From Halobacteria archaeon (GTDB lineage Archaea > Methanobacteriota_B > Thermococci > Methanofastidiosales > NM3): a DNA stretch of 64,000 nucleotides. The stretch spans positions 7,546 to 71,545 of the forward strand of contig DAINBB010000003.1 in the NCBI GenBank assembly GCA_036733165.1. Direction: 5' to 3'. Both the position numbers and the translations under genes were made by a program. Positions 8,707-56,159 of the stretch are shown piece by piece; the first letter of the stretch is position 1; every line of letters starts with the position of its first letter. The notes beneath the pieces are model-generated. The model ran no database searches, had not been told where the DNA came from, and was given only the letters and a program-made list of their open reading frames with translations.

Positions 8707-9604
8707 AGAGGAAACAAGGAAACAGGAGACTTACTCTCTTTTCCCTGGATGCATCGCCAAGAACATGTATCCCTCCATAGAGAAGTCTACATATACCATC
8801 TTTGAGAAGATAGGCGTAAAGCTTCTCAATCACAGATACTCCTGCTGTCCAGCACCAGGTGTCTTCAGGGGATATGACAGGAAGACCCACATGACACTAG
8901 GTGTCAGGAACATAGTCATGGCGGCACAGGACAACGTGGATGTCATGACAATATGCAACGGATGCTACGGTTCCCTTTGGGAAGCGAACGAGATGTTCAG
9001 GAAGAGCAAGGAGAACCAGGAATTTGTGAACGGGAAACTTGCCAAGATAGGGCTCTCATACGATGGGAAGACCGAGGTGCTCCACTTCGTGGATGTTCTT
9101 CACAAGCACTTGGAGGATGTGGAGAATGCAAAGGAGATCGATCTTGGTCTTAAGGTGGCGGTCCATTACGGATGCCATTATCTGAGGCCGTCTGACAAGC
9201 ATCCCGACATCAATCCCGAAAGCCCACACGTCATCGAGGATGTCGTTGAGGCATTGGGCTGCGAGAGCGTGGACTTCAAGAACAAGCTTTCCTGCTGCGG
9301 TGCCGGCGGAGGTGTCTGGAGCGGAGCAGAGGAACTTGGGCTCAGGGTCCTTGATGCGAAGCTCAAGAACGTTCAAGAGTCAGGCGCAGACTGCATAGTC
9401 AACATATGCCCGTTCTGCCACATGCACCTTGACCAGAGCCAGGGCAAGCTTGAGGAGAGGTACAAGATACCTATCCTGCACCTTAGCGAGTTGACCGGTC
9501 TGGCATTTGGCATAAGACCAAAACACCTTGCGATGCACACGCACCTGATATCCACGCGTGACATCGAGAAGAAGATCAAGAGCGCAAAGAAGGAAAAGGC
9601 ATAG
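8699..9604 (+). CDS. hdrB: HdrB-like subunit (two CCG domains)
   Basis: ATG at 8699 overlaps the hdrC stop (8704-8706). FPGCIAKN…SCCPAPG and HYGCHYLRP…SCCGAGGGV motifs. The track ORF began further upstream with out-of-context residues. Confidence 0.8.
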   Translation: MSEEETRKQETYSLFPGCIAKNMYPSIEKSTYTIFEKIGVKLLNHRYSCCPAPGVFRGYDRKTHMTLGVRNIVMAAQDNVDVMTICNGCYGSLWEANEMFRKSKENQEFVNGKLAKIGLSYDGKTEVLHFVDVLHKHLEDVENAKEIDLGLKVAVHYGCHYLRPSDKHPDINPESPHVIEDVVEALGCESVDFKNKLSCCGAGGGVWSGAEELGLRVLDAKLKNVQESGADCIVNICPFCHMHLDQSQGKLEERYKIPILHLSELTGLAFGIRPKHLAMHTHLISTRDIEKKIKSAKKEKA

Positions 9605-24408: not shown

Positions 24409-25158
24409 TCAGCTATCGTTCCTTTCCCTTACAAGCGCGCTTAGCGCCCTCAGTGTGGAAAATCCCTTTTCCGTGATCATGTAGTCTCCACGGTCATGCC
24501 TTTGCATTATCATCCCGGAACATTGAAGCTTCTGAAGGTGGAAAAGTAGGTTCCCTCCGTTAAGGTCCGTCATCCTTGAGATCTCCGAGAATGTCATTGT
24601 CCGCTTTGACAAGGCAAGCATTATCTGCATTCTCCTGTCATTTGCGATAGGTTCAAGGTATTCGTCAACTATGCCTTCAAGGTCGCCTATTGAAACGTCT
24701 AGGTCTTCCTGGCCCGCACCACTATATACGTCCAGTGAGCTAATGAGCCTCAAGTGCCTGTCGAAGATGTTCGACAGCTCTGTGGCACAGGTCTCACATT
24801 TGTCATAGGGCGCCTTGTCCTTTATCTCCATGATCAGGTCCTTTTTTATATCAGAGACCATGTCTTCGTTTTCTGCGTTGTCTATGATATCGATGTTTCT
24901 TTCGATAAGGTCCCTGAAATAATCGATGCACTTCGTCCTGTTGGGACATTCATTATCGATGTATCTGTTGAGGGACTCGTCGGAATTCTTCATGAGACTG
25001 TCGAGCATCCTCTCGCGCATCATGTCCCATGTGGCCTTCAGGACAACTTCGTAGTGTTTCTTATCGGTGGATTCCATATATCTTCTCAGTTCTTCCTGAA
25101 GACAATCCATCTTCTTGTCCATCTTTTCAAGCTTGTCATGGATTTCACCTTCGTTCAT
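24409..25158 (-). CDS. ArsR/SmtB-type wHTH transcriptional regulator with an N-terminal coiled-coil and Cys4 (CPNRTKC…CETC) region
   Basis: C-terminal RRMQIMLALSKRTMTFSEISRMTDLNGGNLLFHLQKLQCSGMIMQ is an ArsR-like HTH. Start set at M17 (ATG 25156-25158) with GGGTGA upstream. Confidence 0.6.
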   Translation of the reverse strand: MNEGEIHDKLEKMDKKMDCLQEELRRYMESTDKKHYEVVLKATWDMMRERMLDSLMKNSDESLNRYIDNECPNRTKCIDYFRDLIERNIDIIDNAENEDMVSDIKKDLIMEIKDKAPYDKCETCATELSNIFDRHLRLISSLDVYSGAGQEDLDVSIGDLEGIVDEYLEPIANDRRMQIMLALSKRTMTFSEISRMTDLNGGNLLFHLQKLQCSGMIMQRHDRGDYMITEKGFSTLRALSALVRERNDS

Positions 25159-25250
25159 TTGATTCACCCAGGTCTCAAAAATGTAGTTGGTATATTTTAA
25201 TAACAAAAAAATATATAAATATAACTGAATCTAATCATATCGGTGATACA

Positions 25251-30826: not shown

Positions 30827-30917
30827 GTTCGATAAACGATTGTAAATTTATAGCTTATTAGGGGGAGAAACCTTTTTAAAAACTTTGCATATCCCTTATA
30901 TAACGGCTGTGAAAATC

Positions 30918-31142
30918 ATGAAAGAGAAGGTAAAAGAAGTATTGGACAAGATTCGCCCAATGCTACAGGCGGATGGCGGGGATGTCGAACTTGTCGATGT
31001 CGATGAGGAGACAGGGAAGGTCATGGTGAAACTTACAGGTGCATGCGGCGGGTGTCCCATGTCCCAGATGACCTTGAAGTTCGGTATAGAGGCCGAACTG
31101 AAGAAGGAGATCCCAGAGGTCACGGAAGTAGTCAACCTTTGA
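30918..31142 (+). CDS. NifU-like (Nfu) Fe-S cluster scaffold domain protein
   Basis: LTGACGGCPMSQMTL CxxC motif of the NifU C-terminal domain; start set at ATG 30918. Confidence 0.7.
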   Translation: MKEKVKEVLDKIRPMLQADGGDVELVDVDEETGKVMVKLTGACGGCPMSQMTLKFGIEAELKKEIPEVTEVVNL

Positions 31143-31154
31143 TTTTTTGGATTT

Positions 31155-31481
31155 TTATTTTGATTCCTCTTTTTTTATACGCTTAGCTTCTGCCTTGATC
31201 CTCTTTTTCTCGATCTTGAGGCGTTCTTTCTCCGGTCCGTCGTCATTGTCAGTGATCAAGGTATTTTCTTCATTTTTTAGAATATGTTCACGATTGTGGC
31301 TATATGTCAGTAAAATCGCAATAAGCGCATATAGGCAAAGCCCCCCCACTATAACATAGACCATGCGTTCTGGAACTTCAGGATAGAATCTGGTAATCGC
31401 GAAAAATATAGATAACAATGCCAATGCGGCCCATGCATGATGCTTGTACCATCCGTAGCTTCTCTTTGCATCATCGCCCAT
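31155..31481 (-). CDS. Small membrane protein with a lysine-rich C-terminal tail (hypothetical)
   Basis: 108 aa, two TM helices. Confidence 0.4.
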   Translation of the reverse strand: MGDDAKRSYGWYKHHAWAALALLSIFFAITRFYPEVPERMVYVIVGGLCLYALIAILLTYSHNREHILKNEENTLITDNDDGPEKERLKIEKKRIKAEAKRIKKEESK

Positions 31482-31518: not shown

Positions 31519-32283
31519 CTACAGTTCCAGCTCCAGTGCAATGGGGCAATGGTCGCTGCCCATGACGTCAGAGAGCATGTAGGATGCCTTCACGTTGCCG
31601 ACAAGCCCCTTGCTGACATAGAAGTAGTCTAGCCTCCAACCGACGTTCCTTTCCCGTGCCCTTGTCTTGTAGTCCCACCAGCTGTAGTGTCCGCCTTCAT
31701 CGTTAAACAGTCTGAACGTGTCTACAAGCCCGTTCTCGATGAATCTGTCCAGCCATTCCCTCTCCTCTGGCAGGAATCCGGAGGCCATCTCGTTCTCTTT
31801 GGGTCTGGCGATGTCCTTTTCTGTGTGGGCGGTATTCACATCGCCGCATACCACCAAGTCCATCCCTTTTGACATCATGTCCTTGCACTGTTCGATGAAC
31901 ACCTTGTAAAAGTCCATTTTGTACTCCAGCCTCTCCTTGGACATCTTTCCGTTCGGAAAGTATATGTTCATAAGATGGAATCTGTCGTAATCGGCAACGA
32001 TTATCCTTCCTTCATCCTCGACATCACCGAAATAGAACGTTTTATTGACAGATGTTGGGGATTGCCTGGTGTATATCGCGACACCACTGTAACCTCTTCG
32101 CTCAGGATACGAGAAAATGGCATCATACCCTTCTATATATCTCAGGTCCAGGGGAAGCTGATCCTCATGGGACTTGGTCTCCTGGATGCAGAGGATGTCA
32201 GGCCCCACAGACCTGAACCATTCCAGAAATCCCTTCTTGTACACTGCCCTGAGGCCATTGACGTTCCATGAGACGATCTGCAT
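31519..32283 (-). CDS. xth: Exodeoxyribonuclease III (Xth/APE1 family)
   Basis: [13 protein letters not shown], …QETK…, SDHCP motifs; 254 aa. Confidence 0.85.
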
Positions 32284-32310: not shown

Positions 32311-32946
32311 TCAATCGACCTTCTTGTAGCAGAACCACCAGTCCTTGCACTCGAGGCTGTCGTCCTTGAGCCTTTTCTCCGCTTCCTCGACAGTGGTCGC
32401 GGGCGGAACTATGGCCCTGCCGCCTATGAACTCGTTGTTCGGCCAGTTGGCGGGCGCGGCAACCTTGTTCTTGTCCGTGAACTGGAGCGCCTTGACTATC
32501 CTCACTATCTCATCGAGGTTTCTTCCGATCTCCTGTGGATAGTATAGTATTACCCTTATTATGCTGTTCGGGTCTACAACGAACACCGCCCTGACGGTGT
32601 TGGAACCCTTGTTTGGATGAAGCATTCCAAGCATCTTTGAAAGTTTCCCATGGTCGGCGATAACTGGGAAAGGTATCTTTACACCAAGATTCTCTTCTAT
32701 CCATTGGACCCACATGATGTGTGAGAATACTTGGTCTATCGAGAGCCCTATTAGTTCACAGTTGAGCTCCTTGAGTTCAGGCGCCTTCTTTGCGAACCCT
32801 GCAAACTCGGTAGTGCATACTGGAGTGAAGTCACCTGGGTGACTAAAAAGGATGAACCATTTTCCCGAATATTCATTGGGAAGTATCTTCCTTCCCATGG
32901 TAGTTACCACCTTGACCTCCGGGAACTTATCCCCGATGAGGGGCAT
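32311..32946 (-). CDS. Peroxiredoxin (1-Cys/Prx6-type thiol peroxidase)
   Basis: [19 protein letters not shown] peroxidatic Cys motif; start set at [10 protein letters not shown]. Confidence 0.85.
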
Positions 32947-33085
32947 GCTTCTTTCTTCTTCACACATTTCAATACCTCTTTTGATTTGTGATAATCGTTA
33001 TGTTGGGGGATTATAATAATTTTTTTCAGAAAAGCATTAAAAACTTGTAGAAAATATGAATACAAAGAAAAAAAGGAGGTATCTC

Positions 33086-33202
33086 ATGACGAAGGTAGGA
33101 GAAAAGTACATCTGCGACATATGCGGAAACGAGGTCGAGGTCGTCAAGGCCGGAGGCGGGACGCTTGTATGTTGCGGAGTAAAGATGAGACTTACAGATT
33201 AA
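33086..33202 (+). CDS. dsr: Desulforedoxin (37 aa), absent from the ORF track
   Basis: MTKVGEKYICDICGNEVEVVKAGGGTLVCCGVKMRLTD with the CxxC…GGGTLVCCG desulforedoxin signature. RBS GGAGGT 6 nt upstream. Confidence 0.7.
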   Translation: MTKVGEKYICDICGNEVEVVKAGGGTLVCCGVKMRLTD

Positions 33203-33208
33203 TCTGAG

Positions 33209-33225
33209 TCCATGCCCTGCATGGA
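33209..33225 (+). other. Short hairpin TCCATG-ccctg-CATGGA followed by a C/T-rich tract between dsr and fprA
   Basis: 6-bp inverted repeat read from sequence. Confidence 0.25.
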
Positions 33226-33251
33226 CCCTTCCCTTTTCAAGGGGGATCCCA

Positions 33252-34442
33252 ATGAACAAAATAGAGTTGAAGAACGGTATATACTGGGTCGGGGCTATAG
33301 ATTGGAATCTCCGCGATTTCCACGGATACAAAACGCCGAACGGGTCTACATATAATGCATATCTCGTAGTTGGCGAGAAGATTGCATTGATAGACACGGT
33401 GAAGAGACCTTTTCTGAACGACCTTGTTGAAAACATCAGGAACATAGTGGAACCTGAGAAGATCGATTATCTTATAGTAAACCATGTCGAGATGGACCAT
33501 TCAGGTTCATTCCCGGAGATCGTGAAACTGCTCAAGAACGCCCGCATTGTCGCCACCAAGGAGGGCAAGGAGGAACTTTTGAAGCACCACGGCAAGGATT
33601 ATGACATAACGGTCGTGGAGGACGGTGACACGATATCCCTGGGCAACAAGACCCTCAGATTCATAAAGACTCCGATGCTGCATTGGCCCGACTCGATGAT
33701 GACATATGTCCAGGAGGACAAGGTGATATTTACTTCGGACGCCTTTGGCCAACATTACGCCTCCACAGAAAGGTTCGACGACGAGCTTGACGAGAAGACG
33801 CTCTATGACGCGGCTGGGGAATACTATTCCAACATACTTTGGCTCTACAGCCCGCTTGTATCACGCCTGATCGAGAAGGTGATGGACATGGGCATCAAGC
33901 TGGAGATGGTGGCACCCGACCATGGCATAATATGGAGAAACGACCCGCATAAACCCATAAACTGGTATTGCGAGTGGGCAAATGGAAAGTCTGTGAACAA
34001 GGTGTTGCTGGTATATGAAACGATGTGGGGCTCCACGGAAAAGATGGCCAGGGCGATAGCCAAGGGAATAACAGACCAGGGAATGAACGTCAAGCTGATG
34101 AAGCTTAAGGAGACCGAATACAGCTACGTGATCAAGGAACTGCTCGGGTGCAGAGGCATACTTGTGGGCACACCTACCCTCAACAACAACATGTTCCCCT
34201 CCATGGGCGGTTTTCTGACATATCTTAAAGGGCTCAGGCCAAAGGGAAGGATAGGAGCGACCTTTGGTTCCTATGGCTGGGGCGGCGGTGCGTGCAAGGC
34301 CGCGGAGGAGATGCTGGACGAGGCGGGTGTCAGGATAGCGTTCCCGCCACTGGAGCTTAAATGGGTCCCTACGGCCGAAGAGCTCGAGGACTGTTACACC
34401 TTTGGAAAGGAGTTTGCATCTAAAGCTATGGAGAAGATATAG
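33252..34442 (+). CDS. fprA: Flavodiiron protein FprA (metallo-beta-lactamase-like diiron domain + flavodoxin domain)
   Basis: HVEMDHSGS (HxExDH) motif plus a C-terminal flavodoxin-like domain; 396 aa. Confidence 0.85.
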   Translation: MNKIELKNGIYWVGAIDWNLRDFHGYKTPNGSTYNAYLVVGEKIALIDTVKRPFLNDLVENIRNIVEPEKIDYLIVNHVEMDHSGSFPEIVKLLKNARIVATKEGKEELLKHHGKDYDITVVEDGDTISLGNKTLRFIKTPMLHWPDSMMTYVQEDKVIFTSDAFGQHYASTERFDDELDEKTLYDAAGEYYSNILWLYSPLVSRLIEKVMDMGIKLEMVAPDHGIIWRNDPHKPINWYCEWANGKSVNKVLLVYETMWGSTEKMARAIAKGITDQGMNVKLMKLKETEYSYVIKELLGCRGILVGTPTLNNNMFPSMGGFLTYLKGLRPKGRIGATFGSYGWGGGACKAAEEMLDEAGVRIAFPPLELKWVPTAEELEDCYTFGKEFASKAMEKI

Positions 34443-35342
34443 TTGGAGAAACAGGATCTTAAGAATGAGGCATGGAAGAAGGTCGGCACAAAGTTTGCAC
34501 ATATAACAAGTGTCCATCCATGCTACAATGAGGATGCGCATCACAAAAACGCCAGGATACACCTCCCAGTGGCCCCGAAATGCAACATCCAATGCAGATT
34601 CTGCAGCAGGGGTCTGGACAAGTGTGCCAATCGGCCTGGCGCCTATTCCCACCTATTGAGCCCCGAGGGGGCTGTGGAACGGGTCAGGGAGGCGAAGAAG
34701 AAGTATAGGACGCTCCGGGTGGTCGGAATAGCGGGCCCGGGCGAACCATTGTTCAACCTCGAGACGTTCGAGACATTGTCAATGGTTGACAAGGCGTTCC
34801 CGAAACTATACAAGTGCATAGCCACCAACGGCCTCCTATTGCCAAAGAAAGTGGACATCCTCAAGAGCAACAACGTCGGCAGCGTCACCGTGACGGTGAA
34901 CGGCCTGGACCCGGATGTCGTTTCACAGATAGTGTCATGGGTGGTGTACGAGGGCAAGCTGTACAAGGACGAAAGGGGCGCCGAGAAGCTGATAGAGAAT
35001 CAGCTTGAAGGGATCGAAAAGGCCGTTAATGCGGGAATGGTGGTGAAGGTCAACACGGTCCTCATACCTTCCATCAACATGGACGAGGTAGAGATGATAG
35101 CAAAGACCGCATCCGAGCTTGGCGCATGGATAATGAACATCATCCCACTGATACCGCTCAACGATTTCTCAGACATGGAACCGCCGGGTTGCGATGACCT
35201 CAAGAGGGCAAGGCAGATGGCCGAGAAGCATATAAATCAGTTCAGGCTCTGCAAACAGTGCAGGGCGGATTCCTGCGGCGTTCCGGGAAAAGAGGACCAT
35301 TCAATACCAAGGACCTGCGCATCAGAATATTTCCATGGGTGA
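34443..35342 (+). CDS. NifB-like radical SAM protein (minimal NifB, no NifX domain), apparent TTG start abutting the fprA stop
   Basis: HPCYNEDAHHKNARIHLPVAPKCNIQCRFCSRGLDKCANRPG is nearly the NifB signature (HPCY…AHH…ARMH…VAP.[21 protein letters not shown]). There is no in-frame ATG before this motif. Confidence 0.7.
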   Translation: MEKQDLKNEAWKKVGTKFAHITSVHPCYNEDAHHKNARIHLPVAPKCNIQCRFCSRGLDKCANRPGAYSHLLSPEGAVERVREAKKKYRTLRVVGIAGPGEPLFNLETFETLSMVDKAFPKLYKCIATNGLLLPKKVDILKSNNVGSVTVTVNGLDPDVVSQIVSWVVYEGKLYKDERGAEKLIENQLEGIEKAVNAGMVVKVNTVLIPSINMDEVEMIAKTASELGAWIMNIIPLIPLNDFSDMEPPGCDDLKRARQMAEKHINQFRLCKQCRADSCGVPGKEDHSIPRTCASEYFHG

Positions 35343-35348
35343 TCCGGC

Positions 35349-37685
35349 ATGGAAGGGAGGTTCCATCTCGAGGGAATACACTGTGCAGGGTGTGTGAAGA
35401 AGATAGAGGATGCACTAAGGTCCCTTGATGGCGTGAAAGATGTGGCCATCAACCTTGCATCCAATTCTGGAACAGTCGATTACGATGAATCCGTTGTAGA
35501 CGGCAGGACGATATCGGCGAAGATATCCTCTCTGGGTTACAAGGTGAAGCTCGAGAGCGTCGTGGTGGACATAGTGGGCATGCACTGCGCCAACTGCGCG
35601 CTCGGTCTTGAGAAGGCCCTGGGCGGCACCGACGGCGTATCCAGTGCAAATGTGAACTTCAACACTGGCAGGGCGTTTGTCACCTACGACCCCTTGGCGT
35701 TCGATGCGGGGCTTATCAACGATATAGTTGAGAAGAGGGGGTACAAGGTCGCCTCAAGGGAGAAGACCGACGAGAAGGAAAGCAATCCGTATCTGAGGAC
35801 GTTCATCTTTACCTTGCTGCTCGCAGTTCCTGTCATATTCATCACCCACTTCACCGAGTTTGACAACAGGCCCATCGTGCTTTTCCTTTTGACAACGCCG
35901 ATACAGTTTATCTCGGGCTTTACATTCTACAGAAGCGCCCTCTACTCTCTCAAGGGTGGTAGCGCCAACATGGATGTCCTCGTGATGCTTGGGACATCTG
36001 CGGCATACTTCTATTCGGTGGGGACGACGTTCTTCTTCGAAGGCCCACTGTTCTTTGAGACCACCGCAATGCTCCTTTCGTTCATACTGCTGGGAAAACT
36101 GCTTGAGACATACGCCAAGGGTAGAACCTCCCAGGCCCTAAAGAAGCTGATGGCACTGCAGGTCAAGTTCGCACTGGTCGAACGCGACGGAAGACAGATA
36201 GAGGTGCCCATAGACTTCGTGAAGGAGGGAGACATAACGATAGTGAGGCCAGGGGAACGCGTGCCCGTGGACGGCATCGTCACTGAAGGGTATTCGACGG
36301 TGGACGAGTCCATGATAACGGGCGAGTCGATACCCAGGGAGAAGGTCGGGGGCGATGATGTCATAGGGGGCACCATAAACGGCAATGGCCTTCTGAAGGT
36401 AAGGGCCACCAAGGTGGGGGCGGATGCCATGCTATCCCAGATAATATCGTTTGTCGAGAAGACCCAGGGCACCAAGCCGCCCATACAAAGGTTCGCCGAC
36501 AGGGTGTCATCCTATTTCGTCCCGGCGATCATCATCATCGGCCTGACCACCTTCGCATTGTGGTATCTCGTCCTTGACGAGACATTCGTCTTCTCGCTGA
36601 CCAGGATGATAGCCGTGCTTGTCGTGGCGTGCCCATGCGCGCTGGGCCTTGCGACACCCACGGCCATTGCGGTCGGCACGGGTGTGGGGGCGAACAACGG
36701 CATCCTGATAAAGAGCGGCGAGGCGCTTGAGAAGGTCCAGGACGTCGACACGGTAGTGTTCGACAAGACGGGGACCCTGACCAGGGGAACGCCGGAGGTC
36801 ACTGACTACACATCCATGGATGTGCTCAGGTACGCTGCCAGCATTGAAAAGGGGTCTACGCATCCCCTTGCCGAGGCCATCGCCTCAAAGGCGGAGCAAG
36901 AGGGCATAGAACTGGCCGGCGTTGAAAAGCTGAACACGATCCCTGGAAGGGGCATCGAGGCCGAGATGGGCGGCAAGAGGTACCTTTTAGGCAATTCATC
37001 ATTATTGAAGGACAATCATATCCCGTTCAGGGAGGAGGGGGCCATACTTCTTGAAAACAGGGGAAACACCGTTGTGCACCTGGCAAGGGAGGGCGAGTAT
37101 CTGGGACATGTGGCTTTGGCAGACACGGTAAAGGACAATGCGCCCCGGGCGGTTGCAGACCTTCGCAGGAGGGGCATATCCGTATGGATGATCACGGGGG
37201 ACAATGAGAACACGGCCAGGGCCATATCACATCAGCTTGGCATAGACAACTTCATGTCCAACATACTTCCAAAGGACAAGGCGCTCAAGATAAAGGAGCT
37301 TCAGGACGGCGGAAAGAAGGTCGCGATGGTCGGCGACGGCATCAACGACGCGCCCGCCCTGATACAGGCGGACGCGGGGATAGCCATCGGCTCCGGTTCC
37401 GAGATAGCCATAGAATCCGGAGAGATAATACTGGTCGGTGACGACATAGGCGATGTCAACGTCTCCTTGTCCCTGTCCAAGAGCATATATTCGAAGATAA
37501 TGCAGAACATGTTCTGGGCGCTGTTCTACAATTCCCTGATGATCCCCATCGCCGCAGGGCTACTGTCGGGTCATGGCATAAACATGAGGCCCGAGCTGGC
37601 GGCGCTCGCCATGTCAATGTCCTCCGTGTCTGTGGTTTCCAACTCCCTTTTGTTAAGAAGATTTAAAATGAAGGATTCAGATTAG
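35349..37685 (+). CDS. copA: Cu+-translocating P1B-type ATPase CopA with two N-terminal HMA domains
   Basis: GIHCAGC and GMHCANC metal-binding sites; CPC, DKTGTLT, HP and [10 protein letters not shown] motifs. Confidence 0.9.
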
Positions 37686-37705
37686 TGTGTTGGAGGTAGG
37701 AACAA

Positions 37706-38200
37706 ATGAGCAACCCCCTTGATCTGGCCATAAAGACCGAAAAGGACGGTATAGCGTTCTATAAGAAAGAAGCCGAAAAGAGTGGCGATGAAATGGGAAG
37801 GAAGATGTTCCTTTCATTCGTTGAGGATGAGAAGCGGCACCTTGAGATACTTCAAAAGATGTCATGCAAGGAACATGTCTGCATATCCGACATTGAGAAC
37901 TACAGTCCGAAAAAGAACCTCAAGACCATATTCTCTGAGATGAAGGAAGAGGAAAGGAAGGGTTCCATCGACACCTCGACGGACATTGGGGCGCTTGAGT
38001 TGGCCATGGAGATGGAAAGGATGGGCTATGACCAATACATGGAGGCAGCGAAGATGGAAAAGGACGAGGAACACAAGAGGATATACATGAAGCTTGCCCA
38101 GGAGGAGAAGGAGCACTTTGACCTTCTGCAGGAGGCAAGGAGCTATCTTGAAGACACAGGGAACTGGTACATGTGGTACGAGCACAAGTTCCCGACATAG
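37706..38200 (+). CDS. Ferritin-like diiron protein (rubrerythrin family, no rubredoxin domain)
   Basis: Two ExxH motifs (EDEKRH, EEKEH) in a four-helix pattern; RBS GGAGGT upstream. Confidence 0.6.
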   Translation: MSNPLDLAIKTEKDGIAFYKKEAEKSGDEMGRKMFLSFVEDEKRHLEILQKMSCKEHVCISDIENYSPKKNLKTIFSEMKEEERKGSIDTSTDIGALELAMEMERMGYDQYMEAAKMEKDEEHKRIYMKLAQEEKEHFDLLQEARSYLEDTGNWYMWYEHKFPT

Positions 38201-38319
38201 GAGATGAGATTATGTACGATGATGACGAAATGGAGACGTTGTTCTGCTTCGAGCCTTCGAAGCATGTTGGAAAGAGCAATGGCAGGGTACTTTACTTTCT
38301 ATACAACAAATATATGTAG

Positions 38320-38808
38320 GTGCTATGGGTGACATATACTGTTAAGGACATACTCAACATTGCCGTAAGGTCCGAAGAGGAGGCGGAACTGTACTATTCC
38401 CGCCTGGGCGACAAGACCGAAAATGTATTTTTTAAAGAAAAGTTACGGCAGCTATCGGCAGAGGAGAAGGGACACAAGGCCGTGATACTCTCATTGATGG
38501 GTGAACAAGGCGTGAATGTTGCCATAAGTGAGGAGAAGGCCGTATCCCTGGAGCTGCCTTCCCTGACGTTCGACGACTCAAAGCCCATGTCCTTGCTCAT
38601 AGAGGCGGCCATGGATGCAGAGAATGCGGCAAGGGTCTTTTACAAGACATTGTCGGAGAGTGTCGAGGAAGGACGCGAACGTGCGATGTTGGAGTACCTT
38701 GCATCGTTTGAAGCGTCCCATTATCACATGCTGGAGGCCGAGATGGCGGCCATCAAGCATTTCGAGGACTACGATGAGTTCAACGAGATGATGCATGTGG
38801 GGCCCTAA
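38320..38808 (+). CDS. Ferritin-like diiron protein, paralog of the upstream gene
   Basis: EEKGHKAV and EASHYHMLE ExxH motifs; GTG start (alternative GTG at 38329). Confidence 0.55.
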   Translation: MLWVTYTVKDILNIAVRSEEEAELYYSRLGDKTENVFFKEKLRQLSAEEKGHKAVILSLMGEQGVNVAISEEKAVSLELPSLTFDDSKPMSLLIEAAMDAENAARVFYKTLSESVEEGRERAMLEYLASFEASHYHMLEAEMAAIKHFEDYDEFNEMMHVGP

Positions 38809-39667: not shown

Positions 39668-40180
39668 TTATCTTTTGCGTTCGATGCGCATGCCCTCGTA
39701 GAACGGCATGAAGTACAGGGTGGCAACGCCTATGATCAGAAGTATCTGCATGTTCGTCTGCCCCTCACCCATGAAGTATATGTCATAGAGGCCGAACCGT
39801 GACAACAGTCCGAACGTGATGATTATCGCTGCCAGATAGAGCATTGGGGGAACGTATTTCCTGTTCCTTCTCAACCTGAGCCATGGTAGCCCCATACCCC
39901 TTGCCTTGTTGAGAGTGTGTTCGAGTGCGACCAGCATTGGCAGCAATATGGCAATGGTGAACGACAGCGTGGACGTATCGAACGCGTTCTTGAAATGAAA
40001 GAGATGGGAGAGGATCATTGCGTCCGAGAACGCTATCAGGAGCAGACCTCTTTCGTTCCACCTGTATGTTAGGGCGATGGACAGGATGGCCAGCAATGAA
40101 AGCATGACAAGATACTGCCACGCCACTCCGGAGTAAATGCCTATTGCGAGGGAGTAGAATGAGAACAGAATTGCCATCAT
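39668..40180 (-). CDS. Polytopic membrane protein, terminal gene of the MoxR operon
   Basis: 170 aa, about 5 TM helices; 4-nt overlap with the DUF58 gene. Confidence 0.45.
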   Translation of the reverse strand: MMAILFSFYSLAIGIYSGVAWQYLVMLSLLAILSIALTYRWNERGLLLIAFSDAMILSHLFHFKNAFDTSTLSFTIAILLPMLVALEHTLNKARGMGLPWLRLRRNRKYVPPMLYLAAIIITFGLLSRFGLYDIYFMGEGQTNMQILLIIGVATLYFMPFYEGMRIERKR

Positions 40181-41592
40181 GACAGTTCACCCTTTATCTT
40201 TGGATATATGATACTAAGTGTGTCTTCGGGCGTCTCTTCGATTATCCTGACCCCGACGTTCCTCATCGTGGACATGTTCCTCCTCTTTGTCAGATAGTTC
40301 TTGTAGAGCCCTTCGGCAGTCTTTATGTCCATTGAGGAGATATCCATGTCGTACCATGGGGAATATGGCGTGATGAGAAGGACCTCCCCACCCCTGGAGC
40401 TTATCATCTTGATGGTGTCAATCAATGCCTTCGAGTTCGATTCAAGGTCCGAGATCACCAGCATCAGGCTCTTTTCGTACTTCTCCCCCATCGCCATGAC
40501 GGTACTGTACAGTCCCGATACGCCCATGATGGACTTGACGGCCCTTCTGCTGCCTGAGAGGTATGGCAGGACCTTTCCTAGGAATTCCTTCGATTCCTCA
40601 TCAAGCGCGTCCTGCTCATATCTGGGGTCGAGAGGATATGTCGCCCTGTACGTGTCAGGCAGCCTCTCGAGCGAGGAGAGGATCGTGCTGTACTGTCCCC
40701 TGTTGAAGAAGGCCGGCACGTTCTCGACCACAGTGTGCTCATCGAAGGCTATGAATCCTGTAGGATTCTCATGTTCAAGGAATATCTTCGTCAATTGCAT
40801 TGTGAGAAGTATGGAATGATTGAACTTGGACCTGTCACCATATGTTGCCCTCATAGACCTGGAGACGTCAAGCAGGACGTATATGCTGCCATACCCCTCC
40901 GCTTCTGAGAGCTTTGTGAGCAGTTTCTGGAGCCTTGACGAGGCCTTCCAGTCTATGTCGGATATCCTGTCCCCAGGTTGGTACTCACGTATCCCTGCAA
41001 AGTCCATCCCTGTGGTGAGCACAGTTTCCTCCTCGACCAGCTCCTCCCTTGAAGAACCTTTTGCAATGTAATCGGCCCTCTTGATCCTGTCTCTGGAATC
41101 CTGGTATGTTATCTCGTTGCGGAGGTCGTACCCCCTCTGGAACATGAACAGCCCCCGCTTGTCAACTACATTGGTCTCAATGGCCTCGAAGACGGCCGTT
41201 CCCCTGCTTTCCCTCACAAGGTCATACGAGTACTCTATTCCCCTCAGGGAGCTGACGACATCGGTATGGACGTTGCTCCCCTCCAGCACGAACGAGTCCT
41301 TCGGGATCCTATCCTTGATCTCGAGGAAGACCTCGTCCGTGAACGGATAGGAGTAACTGACGCTGACCCTTACGGGTTCCTTAGCGAAATAGGTCTTCTT
41401 TTGGATGTTCCTTTGTATGTTCACGTCTTGACTGTCCACGGCGGCGGCGAACGATGATCTGCAGAAGAGGATGTATGAAAGTACGCCGATGCCAAGCAGG
41501 GAGGGAAGGACATTTCCAGAGAGATAGCTCTGCAAGAAGAGCACGAAGATCAGTGCGAACAATATCCTTGCGTCCCTACTAAGTTCCATCAA
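40177..41592 (-). CDS. DUF58-domain protein (vWA-like partner of MoxR) with N-terminal TM helices
   Basis: DWKASSRLQKLLTKL…IYVLLDVSRSMRA is the DUF58 core. Confidence 0.7.
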   Translation of the reverse strand: MMELSRDARILFALIFVLFLQSYLSGNVLPSLLGIGVLSYILFCRSSFAAAVDSQDVNIQRNIQKKTYFAKEPVRVSVSYSYPFTDEVFLEIKDRIPKDSFVLEGSNVHTDVVSSLRGIEYSYDLVRESRGTAVFEAIETNVVDKRGLFMFQRGYDLRNEITYQDSRDRIKRADYIAKGSSREELVEEETVLTTGMDFAGIREYQPGDRISDIDWKASSRLQKLLTKLSEAEGYGSIYVLLDVSRSMRATYGDRSKFNHSILLTMQLTKIFLEHENPTGFIAFDEHTVVENVPAFFNRGQYSTILSSLERLPDTYRATYPLDPRYEQDALDEESKEFLGKVLPYLSGSRRAVKSIMGVSGLYSTVMAMGEKYEKSLMLVISDLESNSKALIDTIKMISSRGGEVLLITPYSPWYDMDISSMDIKTAEGLYKNYLTKRRNMSTMRNVGVRIIEETPEDTLSIIYPKIKGELS

Positions 41593-41597
41593 TTACA

Positions 41598-43013
41598 CTA
41601 CCTTTTCTCCAACGGTACTTTGATGTTCTCCAAAATATTGTTGATTACCCCCCCTATCGAACCCTCCTCGGGGTCCAGGTCGGGGGATGGCAGCAGTCTG
41701 TGGTTCAAGGTGTCATACACAACGTCCTTCACGTCATCGGGTATGATGTAGTCCCTCCCCCTTATGCAGGCCTTTGCCCTTGCGGCGTACAATAGCTGTT
41801 CCGAGGCCCTCGGGGAGGCGCCGATGGTGATCAGTCGGCTGTTCCTTGTGGAGGCTATGATCTCGTTGATGTACTCTATGATGCTTTCATCGACAAACAC
41901 GTTGTCATAGGCCTCTTCCAATCTCTCGAGGTCGAAGACCTTTGGGGGAGCATGACTGGTCCGTTTCCCGTTTGCCTTCATCCTCAGGAGCTCTAGCTCC
42001 CTTTCCTTTGATATATAGCCCATGTTTACCTTTAGCATGAATCTGTCTGCCTGGGCCATGGGCAACTGGTACACTCCGTCGTGTTCGATTGGATTGATCG
42101 TGGCGATCACCATGAAGGGTTGGGGCAGCACGAAGGTCTTGCCCTCTATCGTGACCTGTTTCTCCTCCATGGACTCCAAGAGTGCGGACTGGGTCTTTGG
42201 CGTAGTACGATTTATCTCGTCGGCCAAGAGCAGATTGGAGAAGATGGGTCCCTTCCTCAGCTCGAACTCATGGGCCATCTGGTTGTAGAAGAAGTGACCG
42301 GTAATGTCCTGCGGCAGCATGTCTGGCGTGAACTGTATCCTCTGGCATTCCATTCCCAATGTCGATGTGAATGTCTTGGCGAGGGTCGTCTTCGCGATTC
42401 CTGGAACGCCTTCGAGGAGGACATGCCCCCTTGCCAGAAGGGCTATCAGCAAGTTCTCGACAATATCGTCATAGCCGATGACGACACGGCTGATCTCCCG
42501 CTTGAACTCCTGGACCATGTCCAGGATATCTTTGTTCAGGCAGCCTTCCGCCGGCATGTCGCCAAATATGCTGTCTCTGACGACGTTAATTGGGGATACT
42601 TCATCGTTCACGGCCTGGGGGGGAATCTGCTCATCCTCGAACATGTTCTCGATGATCTCGCCTTTCTCAGCGACGACGGGGGATACGTCGGCCGGTGGCT
42701 CGCCCTCCTCATACAGGTCCTCGGGCGCTTCAAACGTTTCCACGCGTTCGTTGGGTGGCATCTGTTCTTCGATGGCCATGTCATCTTCGGCTGCCTGATC
42801 CTCGTAGACCGTTGTTTTTTCATGCTCGGACGCTTCCTCTGCCGCGATGGGCTCTTCGGGCGTCTTTGCGTCTTCTTCCCTGTCCTCCGTCATTGCCGCC
42901 GTTTCGTCGATATTGATGTTTTCCAAGTCCTTGAGGGTCTCTTCCATATCCTTGTATATCTGGGCGATGGTGTCCTTGACCTCCTCATGGGACAGTTTTT
43001 TCGTTTCTTCCAT
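41598..43013 (-). CDS. MoxR-family AAA+ ATPase with an approximately 150-aa acidic low-complexity N-terminal extension
   Basis: LLEGVPGIAKTTLAK Walker A; QFTPDMLPQDITG typical of MoxR. The N-terminus is E/D-rich. Confidence 0.85.
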   Translation of the reverse strand: MEETKKLSHEEVKDTIAQIYKDMEETLKDLENINIDETAAMTEDREEDAKTPEEPIAAEEASEHEKTTVYEDQAAEDDMAIEEQMPPNERVETFEAPEDLYEEGEPPADVSPVVAEKGEIIENMFEDEQIPPQAVNDEVSPINVVRDSIFGDMPAEGCLNKDILDMVQEFKREISRVVIGYDDIVENLLIALLARGHVLLEGVPGIAKTTLAKTFTSTLGMECQRIQFTPDMLPQDITGHFFYNQMAHEFELRKGPIFSNLLLADEINRTTPKTQSALLESMEEKQVTIEGKTFVLPQPFMVIATINPIEHDGVYQLPMAQADRFMLKVNMGYISKERELELLRMKANGKRTSHAPPKVFDLERLEEAYDNVFVDESIIEYINEIIASTRNSRLITIGASPRASEQLLYAARAKACIRGRDYIIPDDVKDVVYDTLNHRLLPSPDLDPEEGSIGGVINNILENIKVPLEKR

Positions 43014-43022
43014 ATAATCCCC

Positions 43023-44120
43023 CTACCTGAACTTTGAAAAAAATGAATTGAGACCTGAAGCCTGCCATTCCGGATGCATCTTCTTAAGCGAATCTATCAA
43101 TTCCTTCCTATCCGTACTTCTTAAAGATGTTTCCTTACCGAATTTAAACTTATTTATAATATGTCTTGAGACCGAACCGACATACGATAACAGATTGCCC
43201 TCTATCACGAGCACGATCAAGAGGAATGATATGATGATGTATCTGAAGAGGGGATTGTTAGGCATGGTGAGCACCACGTTGAACCTCTCTATGTCCTCCA
43301 AGGTGCCAAGATGCGCCTCGTCTATGTATACCGTCTTTGAGTAGTTGTCCGTGATATCCTCCATCATATGATGTAAAAATGCCATGTTGTCCATCTTGCC
43401 GATCATGTTGTTTATGAGGATGCTGGGGTCGGAGATCATGTACACGATCCCGTCCCCTATCTCCACGCTCGCCACGACCGTAAAGGGCCCGCTGATATCG
43501 CCTTTGCCATAGGAACCGTCCTCATCTATGTCCAGGAATGCCATGCTTGTGGTCTCGAATATCGGTATCACGTCCCCTTCTATGGTGGAAGGGTAGTTGA
43601 GGAGCAGGCTGTACTCAGAGAGCTCGCCTCCCTTGTAGGCTATGGGGAATGCACCCGCCTTTTCGAAGACGGTGTCCAGCATCGGCAGATTGCTGAATCT
43701 TGCCTCGAGCCCTATCCCTTCAAGTACTTCGTTCCCCGTGCCGAAATCGTCGGCTATGAGCAGTGTGCCGCCACCCTCGACAAATTGCCTCAAGAACGCT
43801 TTTTCGTCCCCCGAGTAGCTTGCCCTTGGCCCTATTATGACCACTACGGAGTCATTGTAATCTCCCTCCAGGGTCTCTGACAGGTCTCCGAAGAACGCGT
43901 TGAGGTACCTTTCCTCGTTCATCTCAAGGTCTATGGCACTGACGTTCTCCATATAATCCCTATAGAATCCCGAGGTCCCGTTCCAGCCATTGTTAAAGAC
44001 ACTGAAGTCCGAGGACCTTGAGAGGTAGGGCACCACCAACGGGACGAATATGAACACTATGACTATGATAAAGATAAGAAGATAGACGTAGAACTTCTTC
44101 ATTCCTGGCGAAAACATCAT
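43023..44120 (-). CDS. DUF4350-like membrane-anchored protein
   Basis: N-terminal and C-terminal TM helices, extracytoplasmic middle; gene-context match to MoxR/DUF58 operons. Confidence 0.5.
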   Translation of the reverse strand: MMFSPGMKKFYVYLLIFIIVIVFIFVPLVVPYLSRSSDFSVFNNGWNGTSGFYRDYMENVSAIDLEMNEERYLNAFFGDLSETLEGDYNDSVVVIIGPRASYSGDEKAFLRQFVEGGGTLLIADDFGTGNEVLEGIGLEARFSNLPMLDTVFEKAGAFPIAYKGGELSEYSLLLNYPSTIEGDVIPIFETTSMAFLDIDEDGSYGKGDISGPFTVVASVEIGDGIVYMISDPSILINNMIGKMDNMAFLHHMMEDITDNYSKTVYIDEAHLGTLEDIERFNVVLTMPNNPLFRYIIISFLLIVLVIEGNLLSYVGSVSRHIINKFKFGKETSLRSTDRKELIDSLKKMHPEWQASGLNSFFSKFR

Positions 44121-45775
44121 CTCCCACCACCTATCCTTCCGACAACGTGTCTGACAGACCTGAAGAACGAGCTTTTCCTGTCTTTTCCTATGTCCCTCCC
44201 GGAGTACCTTGCCAGTTCGAAGGTGGCGGTTATGTCCCTGACCTCGTTGGCCGAATCCGAGATCGTTCTCAGTTCCCTGTCTATGTCCGTATGGGTCGTC
44301 GACGGGTGCAGATGCACGACCCTGCGGACCGCAAGGAACTCTATCATCCTGGAATAGGCGAGTATCACGGATTCCTTGACATTTCCTATCTTCTCAAGAA
44401 TGCCCAGTTCAATCAGGAACGTTTCCCTGCGTCCAATATCCTCCATCCCTTCCGTTTCTGGGGACGAGGATTGCATATCTTTTCTCGCATGGCCATCTCT
44501 CCAGTGCACGAGAAGGGCGATAACAAGGCCCGACACCACCGTAATTGCCAACAGCATCTCATATATGTTATTGGAACCTTGCCCTGCCTCTGTTACATGG
44601 GTGCTGAACTCAAGGGCCTGCGACCTGCTTTGAACGAACGGGGCACCTTCCTCAGGGACAAACTCTGCGTACACAACATAGTCAGCATCGTCGATGCCCT
44701 GAACAGTATGTTCGAATAGGCCGTCTTCCCCGGTGACGATGTGGGTCGCCTCCCCGTTTATGTTCAATAAGACGTTCCTGTCTTCCAATCCGTGCCCATA
44801 GATGTCATCAAGCCTGCCTGTAAATAATATGGAATAATCGTTTCCTGCCGGCCCCTGTCCCCTCGACAGTGATATCGTTGTAGGTATTTCGACATACACC
44901 TCAATCTCGTCCGACAGTATTGTCTCATATTGATATGTGGTCTGGGCCATTATGTTAATATGGTCGAAGTCGGCATTGACGGGAAGGTCGTAAAGATAGC
45001 TGAAATGTCCATCCTCGTCAGTTTCAAGCGTTATGGCCGATCCGTTGATGACCAACCCTATGTCGTGAAGTCCCACGGGCAGACCTTCAAAATAGAGATG
45101 TCCATCGACGATAAGCCTGTAGTTCTCGCTAGACCCTGTGTCATATGCGCTGATAAACAGGCCGTTGCCCTGGTACCCATTGTTCTCCATGAGTGCGTCT
45201 ATGGAATCCCTGTAGGTATCGAGGGTGCCCCTGAGCAGCGATATGGAGGCTGCCACGTTCCCCGTCTCATAACCTAATCCTAAAAGGCCGGATGCCGCCT
45301 CCTCGAGATTGTCAAGTCTTGACTCTATCTGGGCGAGCATGTTATCGGCAATTATTATGTGTGATCCGATGTCCGGTCCATCCCCCATCGTCTCAAGGCC
45401 CTCCAGGAGCGTTTTCAATTCTGGCTGGATATTGATGATGCCGTACAGCTGTTCATAAATCGCTTGGAATGACCGATAGTAGAGTGGGAGAAGCTGTTCT
45501 TCAAGTTCCTTGGTGTCCAGCTCTAGCACTATTTCCCCCGGGACCGCAAGGTCGTTTGAAAGTGTTCCTATCCCTTCCATGGCACCCTGGAAGTTCTCTT
45601 GGGAAAGGTGGAAGACCGCATCGGATATGATAGTCACATCGCCCATGAAGTATGAATGCAGGACCTCTGGGTCCTCCATGGCCTCGTTTATGTTCTGGTG
45701 AGAAGGCGAACCCGCCAAGGGGCATGAGGACATTAGCACTATGGCCAACGCGATGGCCAAATGATATTTTCTCAT
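44117..45775 (-). CDS. Secreted/membrane protein with C-terminal DUF4129-like cytoplasmic domain
   Basis: Signal peptide; CarboxypepD_reg-like beta-sandwich segment; TM helix near residue 420; C-terminal …TFELARYSGRDI… resembles the DUF4129 motif. Confidence 0.5.
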   Translation of the reverse strand: MRKYHLAIALAIVLMSSCPLAGSPSHQNINEAMEDPEVLHSYFMGDVTIISDAVFHLSQENFQGAMEGIGTLSNDLAVPGEIVLELDTKELEEQLLPLYYRSFQAIYEQLYGIINIQPELKTLLEGLETMGDGPDIGSHIIIADNMLAQIESRLDNLEEAASGLLGLGYETGNVAASISLLRGTLDTYRDSIDALMENNGYQGNGLFISAYDTGSSENYRLIVDGHLYFEGLPVGLHDIGLVINGSAITLETDEDGHFSYLYDLPVNADFDHINIMAQTTYQYETILSDEIEVYVEIPTTISLSRGQGPAGNDYSILFTGRLDDIYGHGLEDRNVLLNINGEATHIVTGEDGLFEHTVQGIDDADYVVYAEFVPEEGAPFVQSRSQALEFSTHVTEAGQGSNNIYEMLLAITVVSGLVIALLVHWRDGHARKDMQSSSPETEGMEDIGRRETFLIELGILEKIGNVKESVILAYSRMIEFLAVRRVVHLHPSTTHTDIDRELRTISDSANEVRDITATFELARYSGRDIGKDRKSSFFRSVRHVVGRIGGGR

Positions 45776-55910: not shown

Positions 55911-56159
55911 TTTTGCTTTTTTCTTCAATTGAATTTTAGTATTTACAATGTAGTAATTGCATTATTTCCTTATTTTTTTTATTTTACAGTAAAACCACTG
56001 CAAAAAGTATTTAAAGGAAAAGTTACATTAAATGCCTATATAGCTATACGGAGTGTTGGAGCGTGAACATGTTCGAAAAAGTAATCCAATTAGTTAATGG
56101 TATATTTACACACGATTCTGATACAGATTTTGTCAATGATAAGTATGGTTGGAGGTTTA

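Follow-up and report, generated by a model that had tools for sequence, protein, structure and literature searches.

In Desulfovibrio gigas the genes for rubredoxin and rubredoxin:oxygen oxidoreductase are reportedly organized as a dicistron, rd-roo. In Methanothermobacter thermautotrophicus the redox-sensitive repressor MsvR controls the oxidative stress operon fpaA-rlp-rub via the operator TTCGTAN4TACGAA (Karr 2010, as summarized in PMC3729527), and MsvR of Methanosarcina acetivorans binds its own promoter only in the reduced state (PMC3729527). A gene for a flavodiiron protein (FDP) also occurs in nif cluster A of Rhodobacter capsulatus, as part of the NifA-activated operon fprA-fdxCN-rcc03282-rnfF-prxS (PMC6925177). 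Here we describe a locus in which the gene of the cofactor biosynthesis enzyme NifB directly follows the genes for desulforedoxin (dx) and the FDP FprA and is predicted to share an operon with them. It lies in a 64-kb stretch of archaeal DNA (contig DAINBB010000003.1 of assembly GCA_036733165.1, positions 7,546 to 71,545 of the forward strand), which was analysed at its full length and is called the window below.

NifB, one of the radical S-adenosylmethionine (SAM) enzymes, merges two [4Fe-4S] clusters and inserts a carbide, yielding the [8Fe-9S-C] L-cluster. It was long seen as a nitrogen fixation gene, until work from 2023 to 2025 described it as universal and essential in methanogens and found L-clusters of the nitrogenase type in the complex that activates methyl-coenzyme M reductase (MCR). 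All 245 methanogen proteomes surveyed carry NifB and only ∼67% nitrogenase, while in M. acetivorans deletion of nifB failed and the gene showed no nitrogen regulation (bioRxiv 10.1101/2023.10.20.563283). The cryo-electron microscopy structure of the MCR activation complex holds [8Fe-9S-C] L-clusters, with NifB as the presumed source (PMC12176620), and NifB is also essential in methanogens without nitrogenase (PMC12176620; bioRxiv 10.1101/2023.10.20.563283). The universal and essential character of NifB in methanogens is probably owed to the L-clusters of the MCR activation complex.

A predicted seven-gene operon containing nifB

A preliminary description of the window had named seven adjacent genes, for a peroxiredoxin, desulforedoxin, FprA, a NifB-like protein, CopA and two rubrerythrin-like proteins. 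The listing of open reading frames (ORFs) and profile searches with Pfam and NCBIfam recovered all of them with the same coordinates and families. The plus-strand genes look like one operon of seven genes, dx-fprA-nifB-copA-rbrL1-orf35-rbrL2, with the following features:

33056-33202 (ORF), start ATG 33086, plus strand: desulforedoxin (dx), 38 aa; PF06397 53 bits against 23, TIGR00319 43 bits against 36
33208-33226, plus strand: GC-rich hairpin with an eight-pair stem, then a T-rich tract, inside the 49-nt dx/fprA spacer
33252-34442, plus strand: class-A flavodiiron protein FprA; ODP PF19583 84 bits and Flavodoxin_1 PF00258 67 bits
34443-35342, plus strand: NifB, radical-SAM enzyme of the SAM-only archaeal type; 292 bits to NifBs of solved structure, TIGR01290 272 bits
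35349-37685, plus strand: CopA, Cu(I)-exporting P1B-1 ATPase; TIGR01511 617 bits against 397; two N-terminal HMA domains
37706-38200, plus strand: first ferritin-like diiron four-helix-bundle protein (rbrL1); PF02915 44 bits; best PDB match TM1526 (1VJX)
38212-38319, plus strand: conserved 35-codon ORF (orf35), MYDDDEMETLFCFEPSKHVGKSNGRVLYFLYNKYM, between the rubrerythrin-like genes; GGAG 8 nt upstream
38320-38808, start GTG 38320 or 38329, plus strand: second ferritin-like diiron protein (rbrL2), last gene of the presumed operon; PF02915 58 bits

The spacings of 0, 6 and 20 nt reported earlier for this block proved exact when verified base by base. The fprA stop codon TAG (34440-34442) is directly followed by the nifB start codon TTG (34443), which has a GGAG 7 nt before it; the TGA of nifB ends at 35342 and a 6-nt spacer leads to the copA ATG (35349); the TAG of copA ends at 37685, and a GGAGGT lies within the 20 nt that precede the next ATG (37706). 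Shine-Dalgarno (SD) sequences precede the starts of dx, nifB, rbrL1 and orf35, and copA has a weaker GGGTGAT. Because orf35 fills an apparent gap of 119 nt between the two rubrerythrin-like genes, none of the spacers between dx and the end of the block is longer than 49 nt. The tight coupling that had been noted for the plus-strand genes is supported by gaps of 0-49 nt, by SD sequences and by a gene order that is kept in relatives, and the unit is both larger and more compact than first described: an exodeoxyribonuclease III gene (xth) follows the peroxiredoxin gene (prx), orf35 separates the rubrerythrin-like genes, and an Nfu-type gene lies just upstream. The genes fprA and nifB share a reading frame (34440-34445) and are parted only by the TAG and then the TTG. 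Synthesis of an FprA-NifB fusion protein by read-through of the in-frame TAG was rejected as unlikely, since the overlaps in relatives (-4 and -11 nt) fall in other frames.

For dx the ATG at 33086 is the most likely start, with an AGGAGG 6 nt before it and a product of 38 aa that matches the relatives. The protein contains the FeCys4 site of desulforedoxins, CxxC...CC, here CDICG...CCG. FprA combines a metallo-beta-lactamase-like diiron domain, in which HxExDH reads NHVEMDH, with a C-terminal flavodoxin domain, as in class-A FDPs, and at the family level it would be an O2 (or NO) reductase. Among solved structures it scored best with Moorella FprA (1YCF, 421 bits), followed by the rubredoxin:oxygen oxidoreductase of D. 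gigas (1E5D, 357 bits) and the methanogen F420H2 oxidases 6FRM (335 bits) and 2OHH (322 bits). Since the bacterial rubredoxin-dependent enzymes score best and dx is conserved upstream, an FeCys4 donor to FprA is supported. Desulforedoxin, which had already been proposed as the redox partner, is thus a plausible electron donor, all the more as a rubredoxin gene takes the analogous position in Methanoperedens (see below). The hairpin between the two genes could act as an attenuator or stabilizer that sets the Dx:FprA ratio. It was the only noted element of a scan for sigma-70 promoters and intrinsic terminators, which is ill-suited to archaea and gave counts at shuffle expectation.

NifB is probably an L-cluster synthase

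The window NifB matched the NifB structures 7JMA, 7JMB and 7BI7 over its full length with 292 bits (E 2.5e-86) and 6Y1X with 258 bits. In an alignment with 14 homologues, H25-P26-C27, H40, C47/C51/C54, C125 and C270/C273 were all invariant. The radical-SAM motif CX3CX2C is present, with CNIQCRFC aligning with CNIHCKFC of 7JMA, and the invariant residues correspond to H28/C30, H43, C50/C54/C57, C129 and C274/C277 of M. acetivorans NifB (PMC6053413, PMC7145814). In the latter protein, H43 is the essential nitrogen ligand of the K1 cluster, and the ligands of the K1 and K2 [4Fe-4S] clusters include the Cys of the HPC motif, C129 and C274/C277 (PMC6053413, PMC7145814). The mapped ligands also agree with the set of crystal-structure ligands summarized in bioRxiv 10.1101/2023.10.20.563283. 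With 272 bits the protein stays below the TIGR01290 cut-off of 343.65 bits, the match spanning model positions 9-279 of 441; a bacterial NifX domain, absent from SAM-only archaeal NifBs, is part of that model. From the full-length structure matches and the invariant cluster ligands, we therefore treat the gene as one for a genuine L-cluster ([8Fe-9S-C], NifB-co) synthase and not for a generic Fe-S repair factor.

This identification changes how the locus has to be read. The preliminary description had assigned all seven genes to the handling of O2, reactive oxygen species or metals and had proposed a co-regulated detoxification unit that includes Fe-S (re)assembly. The former holds for the other genes and fails for NifB, which is a cofactor biosynthesis enzyme; the latter stands as a predicted operon for O2, peroxide and Cu, with the roles in O2 reduction, peroxide removal and Cu efflux retained at the family level by the profile searches, while "Fe-S (re)assembly" is too imprecise for a bona fide NifB and is to be replaced by L-cluster synthesis. 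Genes for nitrogenase, MCR (mcr) or its activation (mmp) were not found within the window. The client of this NifB would probably be MCR activation. The protein is 100% identical to one of a "Candidatus Methanofastidiosa archaeon" metagenome-assembled genome (MAG).

The dx-fprA-nifB core is conserved in the clade

Look-ups of NifB and FprA homologues together with a scan of GTDB species genomes, tblastn and a desulforedoxin motif search yielded eight distinct loci of the clade. The core dx-fprA-nifB is kept in all eight, down to NifB identities of 60-63%, and a near-identical dx was located by the motif search directly upstream of each fprA. The fprA/nifB junctions measure -11, -4, -4, -1, 0, +7, +7 and ∼+9 nt. 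Conservation of the other genes is lower: nifB is followed by copA in seven loci, twice with a small extra HMA protein in between, prx is present in six and the pair of rubrerythrin-like genes in five. Locus L006 has lost prx, copA and the rubrerythrin-like genes and retains just Nfu-dx-fprA-nifB, followed by a convergent pfkB, so that dx-fprA-nifB constitutes the core and the other genes are accessory.

In the 80 best hits, none of which had less than 50% identity, no assembly was represented by more than one NifB locus. The nifB of the island therefore looks like the housekeeping gene, subject to the completeness of the MAGs. One member of the clade, L068, is the MAG NM3, on whose genome Ca. 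Nuwarchaeales were founded; these are MCR-encoding, H2-dependent methylotrophic methanogens and the sister group of Methanofastidiosales.

FDP genes are linked to nifB in other lineages

Among 74 species-level archaeal nifB loci the FDP gene was the commonest immediate upstream neighbor (12), followed by GatB/E (7) and DUF169 (7). In Methanofastidiosum, whose NifB is 50-53% identical to that of the window, nifB is followed on one strand by a DUF1858/ScdA_N-like gene, a distant FDP gene (32-34% identical) and a rubrerythrin-like gene, with gaps of 13, 64 and 20 nt in L087 (3537-6411). In L058 (6001-9708) a rhodanese-domain gene is inserted into this string on the opposite strand.

A different arrangement was found in 16 Methanoperedens-type species loci, where an FprA gene (49-52% identical) lies upstream of nifB in divergent orientation, and in 12 of 15 aligned intergenic regions a classical rubredoxin gene sits directly upstream of nifB on the nifB strand. 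Examples of this rubredoxin (MIKYRCTVCGYIYDPE...DWVCPQCGVGKDMFEKM) are at ∼5700-5870 in L047 and at ∼5560-5720 (plus strand) in L051, and another small ORF rich in Cys accompanies it in some loci. In L046 (4292-8383) FDP genes flank nifB on both sides, the upstream one divergent and the downstream one a paralogue with 46% identity.

In a neighbor-joining tree, which is crude and carries no bootstrap values, the FDPs of the window clade, of Methanoperedens and of Methanofastidiosum formed three separate clades, with nifB-unlinked Bathyarchaeia-type FDPs between them. The nearest relatives of the window FprA outside its clade are proteins of Bathyarchaeia/"Crenarchaeota" (53-56%). That fprA and nifB had been transferred jointly between the window clade and Methanoperedens was rejected, as the window FprA is closer to these proteins than to those of Methanoperedens and the clades are separate. 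Taken together, the Methanofastidiosum and Methanoperedens loci, the FDP tree and the census of neighbors argue that the link between FDP genes and nifB exceeds inherited synteny.

The Bathyarchaeia-type loci L091-L093 served as controls. Here genes for a CopA-type ATPase, a YHS protein, thioredoxin, OsmC and an FprA (55% identical) are clustered, and no nifB is present; rubrerythrin is adjacent in L091 and L092 and ∼5 kb away in L093, and Fe/Mn superoxide dismutase (SOD) occurs in L091 and L092. An FprA-centered island for O2 and Cu is therefore a recurrent archaeal theme, for which the preliminary description had chosen the right general label, and the captured nifB is what distinguishes the present one.

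A putative MsvR operator precedes nifB in Methanoperedens

The most conserved element in the alignment of the Methanoperedens intergenic regions is TTCGTA-N4-(T/C/A)ACGAA, 16-34 nt before the nifB start. An exact TTCGN8CGAA at this distance was found in 24 Methanoperedens-type loci (L030, L036, L037, L040, L046-L051, L053, L055, L059, L063, L065, L067, L069, L071-L074, L076, L079 and L086), and one further site lies 62 nt upstream of nifB in L024, from a Methanosarcinales MAG. These nifB-upstream sites (16-62 nt) account for 25 of the 35 occurrences of TTCGN8CGAA in the 928 kb of fetched loci. Their half-sites are fixed and their spacers variable, and nearly all read TTCGTA-N4-xACGAA, which corresponds to the published MsvR operator. 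In a second MCR lineage the operator would independently place nifB in a context of redox stress. An expression hint comes from Methanobrevibacter ruminantium, where RNA sequencing under the membrane-damaging stress of lauric acid gave a log2 fold change of 2.58 for nifB, which rose together with fprA1/2 and rbr2 (PMC5816558).

Accessory genes and surroundings

The CopA translation contains the motifs CPC, YN, MxxSS (MSMSS) and DKTGT of P1B-1 ATPases, a family in which CPC belongs to TM4, YN to TM5 and MxxSS to TM6. A plausible rationale for its presence is that oxygenated sulfidic habitats mobilize copper and that Cu(I) attacks exposed Fe-S clusters. The two PF02915 proteins (162-164 aa) each contain E/ExxH twice. 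Since the rubredoxin FeCys4 domain is absent, they are rubrerythrin-like (erythrin-type) rather than rubrerythrins proper, in keeping with how the genes had been described before. TM1526 (1VJX), the best match of the first, is an uncharacterized ferritin-like diiron-carboxylate protein; the second matched best the hypothetical protein 2FZF (E 5.6e-17), and its gene overlaps the convergent pfkB by 4 nt. Both matches, the only relatives with solved structures, are uncharacterized products of structural genomics. A preprint on tubules of an oxygen-induced rubrerythrin in Pyrococcus furiosus was set aside as inapplicable, because it concerns the canonical protein with a rubredoxin domain.

Homologues of orf35 with 59-63% identity occupy the same position in L002 and L094. 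Since L008 has a 47-aa YHS/TRASH protein there, orf35 may be a Cys-less derivative of such a protein. In L008 (7014-10025) the rubrerythrin-like genes bracket, besides this protein, TusA and a cysteine desulfurase (Aminotran_5), which places sulfur mobilization inside the island, and a gap of ∼2.3 kb, similar to that of L008, separates the two rubrerythrin-like genes of L068 (9278-12541).

To the left of dx the following features were recorded:

32968-33085, intergenic: AT-rich divergent region; TATA-like ATTATAATAA at 33010-33019
32311-32967, minus strand: archaeal Prx6-type peroxiredoxin (prx); NF009668 350 bits (cut-off 211), PF00578 (AhpC-TSA), PF10417 (1-cysPrx_C)
31519-32283, minus strand: exodeoxyribonuclease III (xth), 27 nt after the end of prx; TIGR00633 314 bits (cut-off 99)
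31155-31481, minus strand: conserved 108-aa protein, encoded downstream of xth, for which two transmembrane helices are predicted and Pfam records no hit
30885-31142, plus strand: Nfu-type (NifU C-terminal domain) [4Fe-4S] carrier; PF01106 109 bits

The divergent orientation of prx (32311-32967, minus strand) relative to the plus-strand genes from dx onward, as noted before, is correct. The region between them presumably holds the promoters of prx-xth and of dx-fprA-nifB-copA-rbr. The peroxiredoxin has the AhpC-TSA fold, a PVCT peroxidatic motif, the 1-Cys Prx C-terminal domain and a C-terminal CX5C, and exceeds the NCBIfam cut-off for the archaeal Prx6 type; an alternative start at ATG 32946 is possible. 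The prx-xth pair is kept in L002, L005, L008 and L094, and homologues of the 108-aa protein (45-63% identity) lie at the same position in L002, L005, L007, L068 and L094. Every clade locus has an Nfu gene no more than 2 kb upstream of dx, in L006 immediately upstream on the same strand, and Nfu may belong with the island by donating clusters.

Elsewhere in the window, 24409-25206 (minus strand) encodes a Cys-rich protein (CX6C...CXXC) with a C-terminal ArsR-type winged helix-turn-helix (DUF7347), which could be a redox or metal sensor. As a candidate regulator of the island it was dismissed as probably a coincidence: a homologue with 33% identity was found in Methanoperedens L051 only, at a distance of 1 kb from nifB, and all other loci lack it. 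The string of a MoxR AAA+ ATPase, DUF58 (vWA-like), DUF4350 and DUF4129 at 40177-45775 (minus strand) adjoins the island in L001, L002 and L094 too. The cluster at 60-9604 (plus strand) comprises HdrA-like, MvhD (FlpD) and HdrB-C-like (CCG domain) genes, with two HdrA-type and three CCG-domain proteins, and fits the heterodisulfide-linked energy metabolism of a methyl-reducing methanogen. A protein of 2144 aa with repeated CarboxypepD_reg, SdrD_B and prealbumin-like folds (56097-62531, plus strand) is probably surface or adhesin-like.

A possible role of nifB in the oxidative stress response

On balance, we consider it somewhat probable that an oxidative stress operon of the kind known from anaerobes has captured nifB, tying the synthesis of [8Fe-9S-C] clusters, probably for MCR activation, to O2 defence. 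The host, an uncultured methanogen of the Methanofastidiosia/Nuwarchaeales group, would be a strictly anaerobic, MCR-bearing, methyl-reducing archaeon, and the locus would respond in both directions to oxidative and metal stress, with one AT-rich intergenic region driving prx-xth leftward and the seven-gene dx operon rightward. The products of prx-xth would remove peroxide and repair oxidized DNA. Desulforedoxin would hand electrons to FprA, which in turn reduces O2 to water, while peroxide or free iron would be handled by the two proteins with a diiron four-helix bundle together with the peroxiredoxin, and CopA would export Cu(I), an attacker of exposed Fe-S clusters. NifB, translationally coupled to fprA, would synthesize L-clusters. 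Because it is encoded on the same predicted mRNA as fprA, the extremely O2-labile enzyme and its [8Fe-9S-C] product would be made alongside local O2 scavenging. After an oxidative episode the ATP-driven complex of MCR activation (and nitrogenase, should the organism have one) could then be resupplied with L-clusters.

More broadly, L-cluster synthesis by NifB may be a regulated part of how MCR-dependent archaea respond to oxidative stress, by way of the fprA operon in Nuwarchaeales/Methanofastidiosia and of MsvR in Methanoperedens. The machinery of MCR activation would lose its L-clusters to O2, and the rate at which methane metabolism restarts would then be limited by their de novo synthesis. 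We put this generalization forward tentatively and, for the time being, regard it as doubtful.

Several observations weigh against the proposed coupling of nifB to O2 defence. We infer co-transcription and O2 induction from gene spacing alone. When the 200 nt upstream of dx were aligned for seven clade loci, only the SD sequence was conserved and no shared palindrome appeared, so that 32968-33085 yielded no conserved operator; nor does this region contain an MsvR box. The only TTCGN8CGAA site of the window, at 17586, lies within a coding region, with 0.85 sites expected by chance. As no MsvR box is present at the island, co-regulation in the window would come about via operon fusion. Neither an FDP neighbor nor an MsvR box of nifB was detected in the sampled Methanocella, ANME-2a/b, Archaeoglobales, Methanomethylicota and Bathyarchaeia, which makes the FDP-nifB link lineage-specific. 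The flanking synteny of M18 peptidase, Nfu and PfkB genes is also kept across the clade, so part of the fprA-nifB conservation could reflect shared ancestry. Finally, neither the substrate preference of the FDP (O2 or NO) nor its electron donor can be read from the sequence.

Four other explanations have to be considered, which we rank by weight from a chance neighborhood of nifB, over a NifB dedicated to nitrogenase and NO as the stressor, down to desulforedoxin and FprA as electron donors of NifB. The gene could have landed beside a constitutive fprA and be co-transcribed without any functional tie, the island being a housekeeping string. The conserved flanking synteny, the fact that most archaeal nifB genes are not beside FDP genes and the absence of a detected stress-responsive operator in the window would all agree with such hitch-hiking. 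The linkage recurs, however, in three arrangements with three FDP clades, L006 has dropped prx, copA and the rubrerythrin-like genes yet kept dx-fprA-nifB, and nifB of Methanoperedens carries a conserved operator of a redox regulator. In addition, adjacency to one of 2-3 FDP genes among 2000-3000 genes would arise by chance in ∼0.2-0.3% of cases per lineage, a rough estimate and not a computed statistic. We therefore hold a chance neighborhood to be unlikely. That NifB serves nitrogenase, with the FDP, the peroxiredoxin and their partners shielding cofactor assembly from O2 like the flavodiiron proteins of R. capsulatus and of heterocysts, is a little less probable still. It could draw on the operon with fprA and prxS in nif cluster A of R. 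capsulatus, on the nitrogenase encoded in ∼67% of methanogen proteomes and on the nearby gene with an Nfu/NifU domain. Against this, nifH, nifD, nifK, nifE and nifN were found neither in the window nor in the flanks of the eight clade loci, NifB is universal and essential even in methanogens without nitrogenase and not nitrogen-regulated in M. acetivorans, and its gene shares the predicted operon with genes for O2, peroxide and Cu instead of nif genes. The literature yielded nothing usable on nitrogenase in Methanofastidiosia.

A further alternative keeps the protective role of the FDP and exchanges the stressor: as an NO reductase, it would guard NifB and other Fe-S enzymes from nitrosative stress. 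ScdA/RIC proteins repair NO-damaged iron centers, and in Methanofastidiosum the gene that separates nifB from the FDP gene encodes a DUF1858/ScdA_N-like protein; moreover, the best structural relative, Moorella FprA, was deposited as a nitric oxide reductase, and the linkage is strongest in the nitrate-reducing Methanoperedens. Since peroxiredoxin, rubrerythrin-like proteins and exonuclease III are partners typical of O2 and peroxide defence, and the methanogen FDPs characterized to date are O2 reductases, we judge NO as the stressor to be improbable. The last explanation, a catalytic link by which desulforedoxin or rubredoxin and the flavodoxin-like domain of FprA deliver electrons to the radical-SAM cluster of NifB, is the hardest to uphold. 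Radical-SAM enzymes do require a low-potential one-electron donor, and a rubredoxin-type gene is found upstream in both lineages (dx-fprA-nifB, and rd-nifB in Methanoperedens). The potentials of rubredoxin and desulforedoxin, at ∼0 mV, are however far too high to reduce a radical-SAM [4Fe-4S]2+ cluster, FDPs are terminal oxidases, and in Methanoperedens fprA sits on the opposite strand, all of which renders such a link very improbable.

The capture of nifB by an O2 defence operon, which we favor, combines components of known families in an operon of known type. Searches of the literature found no report linking fprA with nifB in archaea and none pairing MsvR with nifB; the embedding of nifB in such an operon and the MsvR operator of Methanoperedens nifB are not described in the literature searched. 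In three MCR lineages nifB appears tied, physically or regulatorily, to O2 defence of the flavodiiron/rubredoxin type, in one of them via a canonical MsvR operator. This gives a lead on the control of nifB in settings other than nitrogen fixation and on the recovery of MCR activity after O2 in methanogens and methanotrophic archaea, and the locus makes both the regulation of L-cluster supply and MCR recovery after O2 directly testable. If the coupling is real, redox sensing would extend to the biogenesis of a cofactor for methane metabolism, with a bearing on how well the methane-cycling archaea of wetlands, digesters and sediments tolerate O2, and natural modules of FDP, desulforedoxin and NifB could aid the heterologous expression of the O2-labile NifB.

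Comparison with known systems

In its protein sequence the window NifB resembles the SAM-only NifBs of M. acetivorans, Methanothermobacter and Methanothrix (7JMA, 7JMB, 7BI7, 6Y1X), with ∼300 aa and no NifX domain, and shares with them the CX3CX2C and HPC motifs, the equivalent of His43 and the C-terminal CxxC. The genomic context differs, since known methanogen nifB genes stand alone (Methanocella) or follow mmp genes (Methanothermobacter marburgensis, PMC12176620), while that of the window is translationally coupled to fprA. The R. capsulatus operon (PMC6925177) offers a parallel for a flavodiiron protein and a peroxiredoxin that are co-regulated with nitrogenase-cofactor machinery. That system is however bacterial, under nitrogen control by NifA/RpoN, has its nifB in a separate operon and serves nitrogenase, whereas the window nifB lies inside the FDP operon with no nitrogenase genes in sight.

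Among methanogen loci the fpaA-rlp-rub operon of M. thermautotrophicus, to the extent that Karr 2010 is summarized in PMC3729527, likewise unites genes for an O2 reductase of the flavodiiron family, for a protein resembling rubrerythrin and for an FeCys4 protein of the rubredoxin type, and a divergent promoter region is found in both. Compared with that summary, the divergent gene of the window encodes a peroxiredoxin and not MsvR, the TTCGN8CGAA box is lacking and desulforedoxin is placed first; the window FDP scores higher with rubredoxin-dependent enzymes from bacteria than with F420H2 oxidases, and nifB and copA are added. The Bathyarchaeia-type islands L091-L093 share with the window FprA, an ATPase of the CopA type, enzymes for peroxide and redox reactions and a YHS/TRASH protein of small size. 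They differ by the lack of nifB and desulforedoxin, by a rubrerythrin with a rubredoxin domain (L091 and L092) and by the additional OsmC, thioredoxin and SOD. The rd-roo dicistron of D. gigas, as it is said to be arranged, has an FeCys4 gene directly upstream of a class-A FDP gene as well, but the window contains desulforedoxin instead of rubredoxin, belongs to an archaeal host, and its presumed operon runs on into nifB, copA and the rubrerythrin-like genes.

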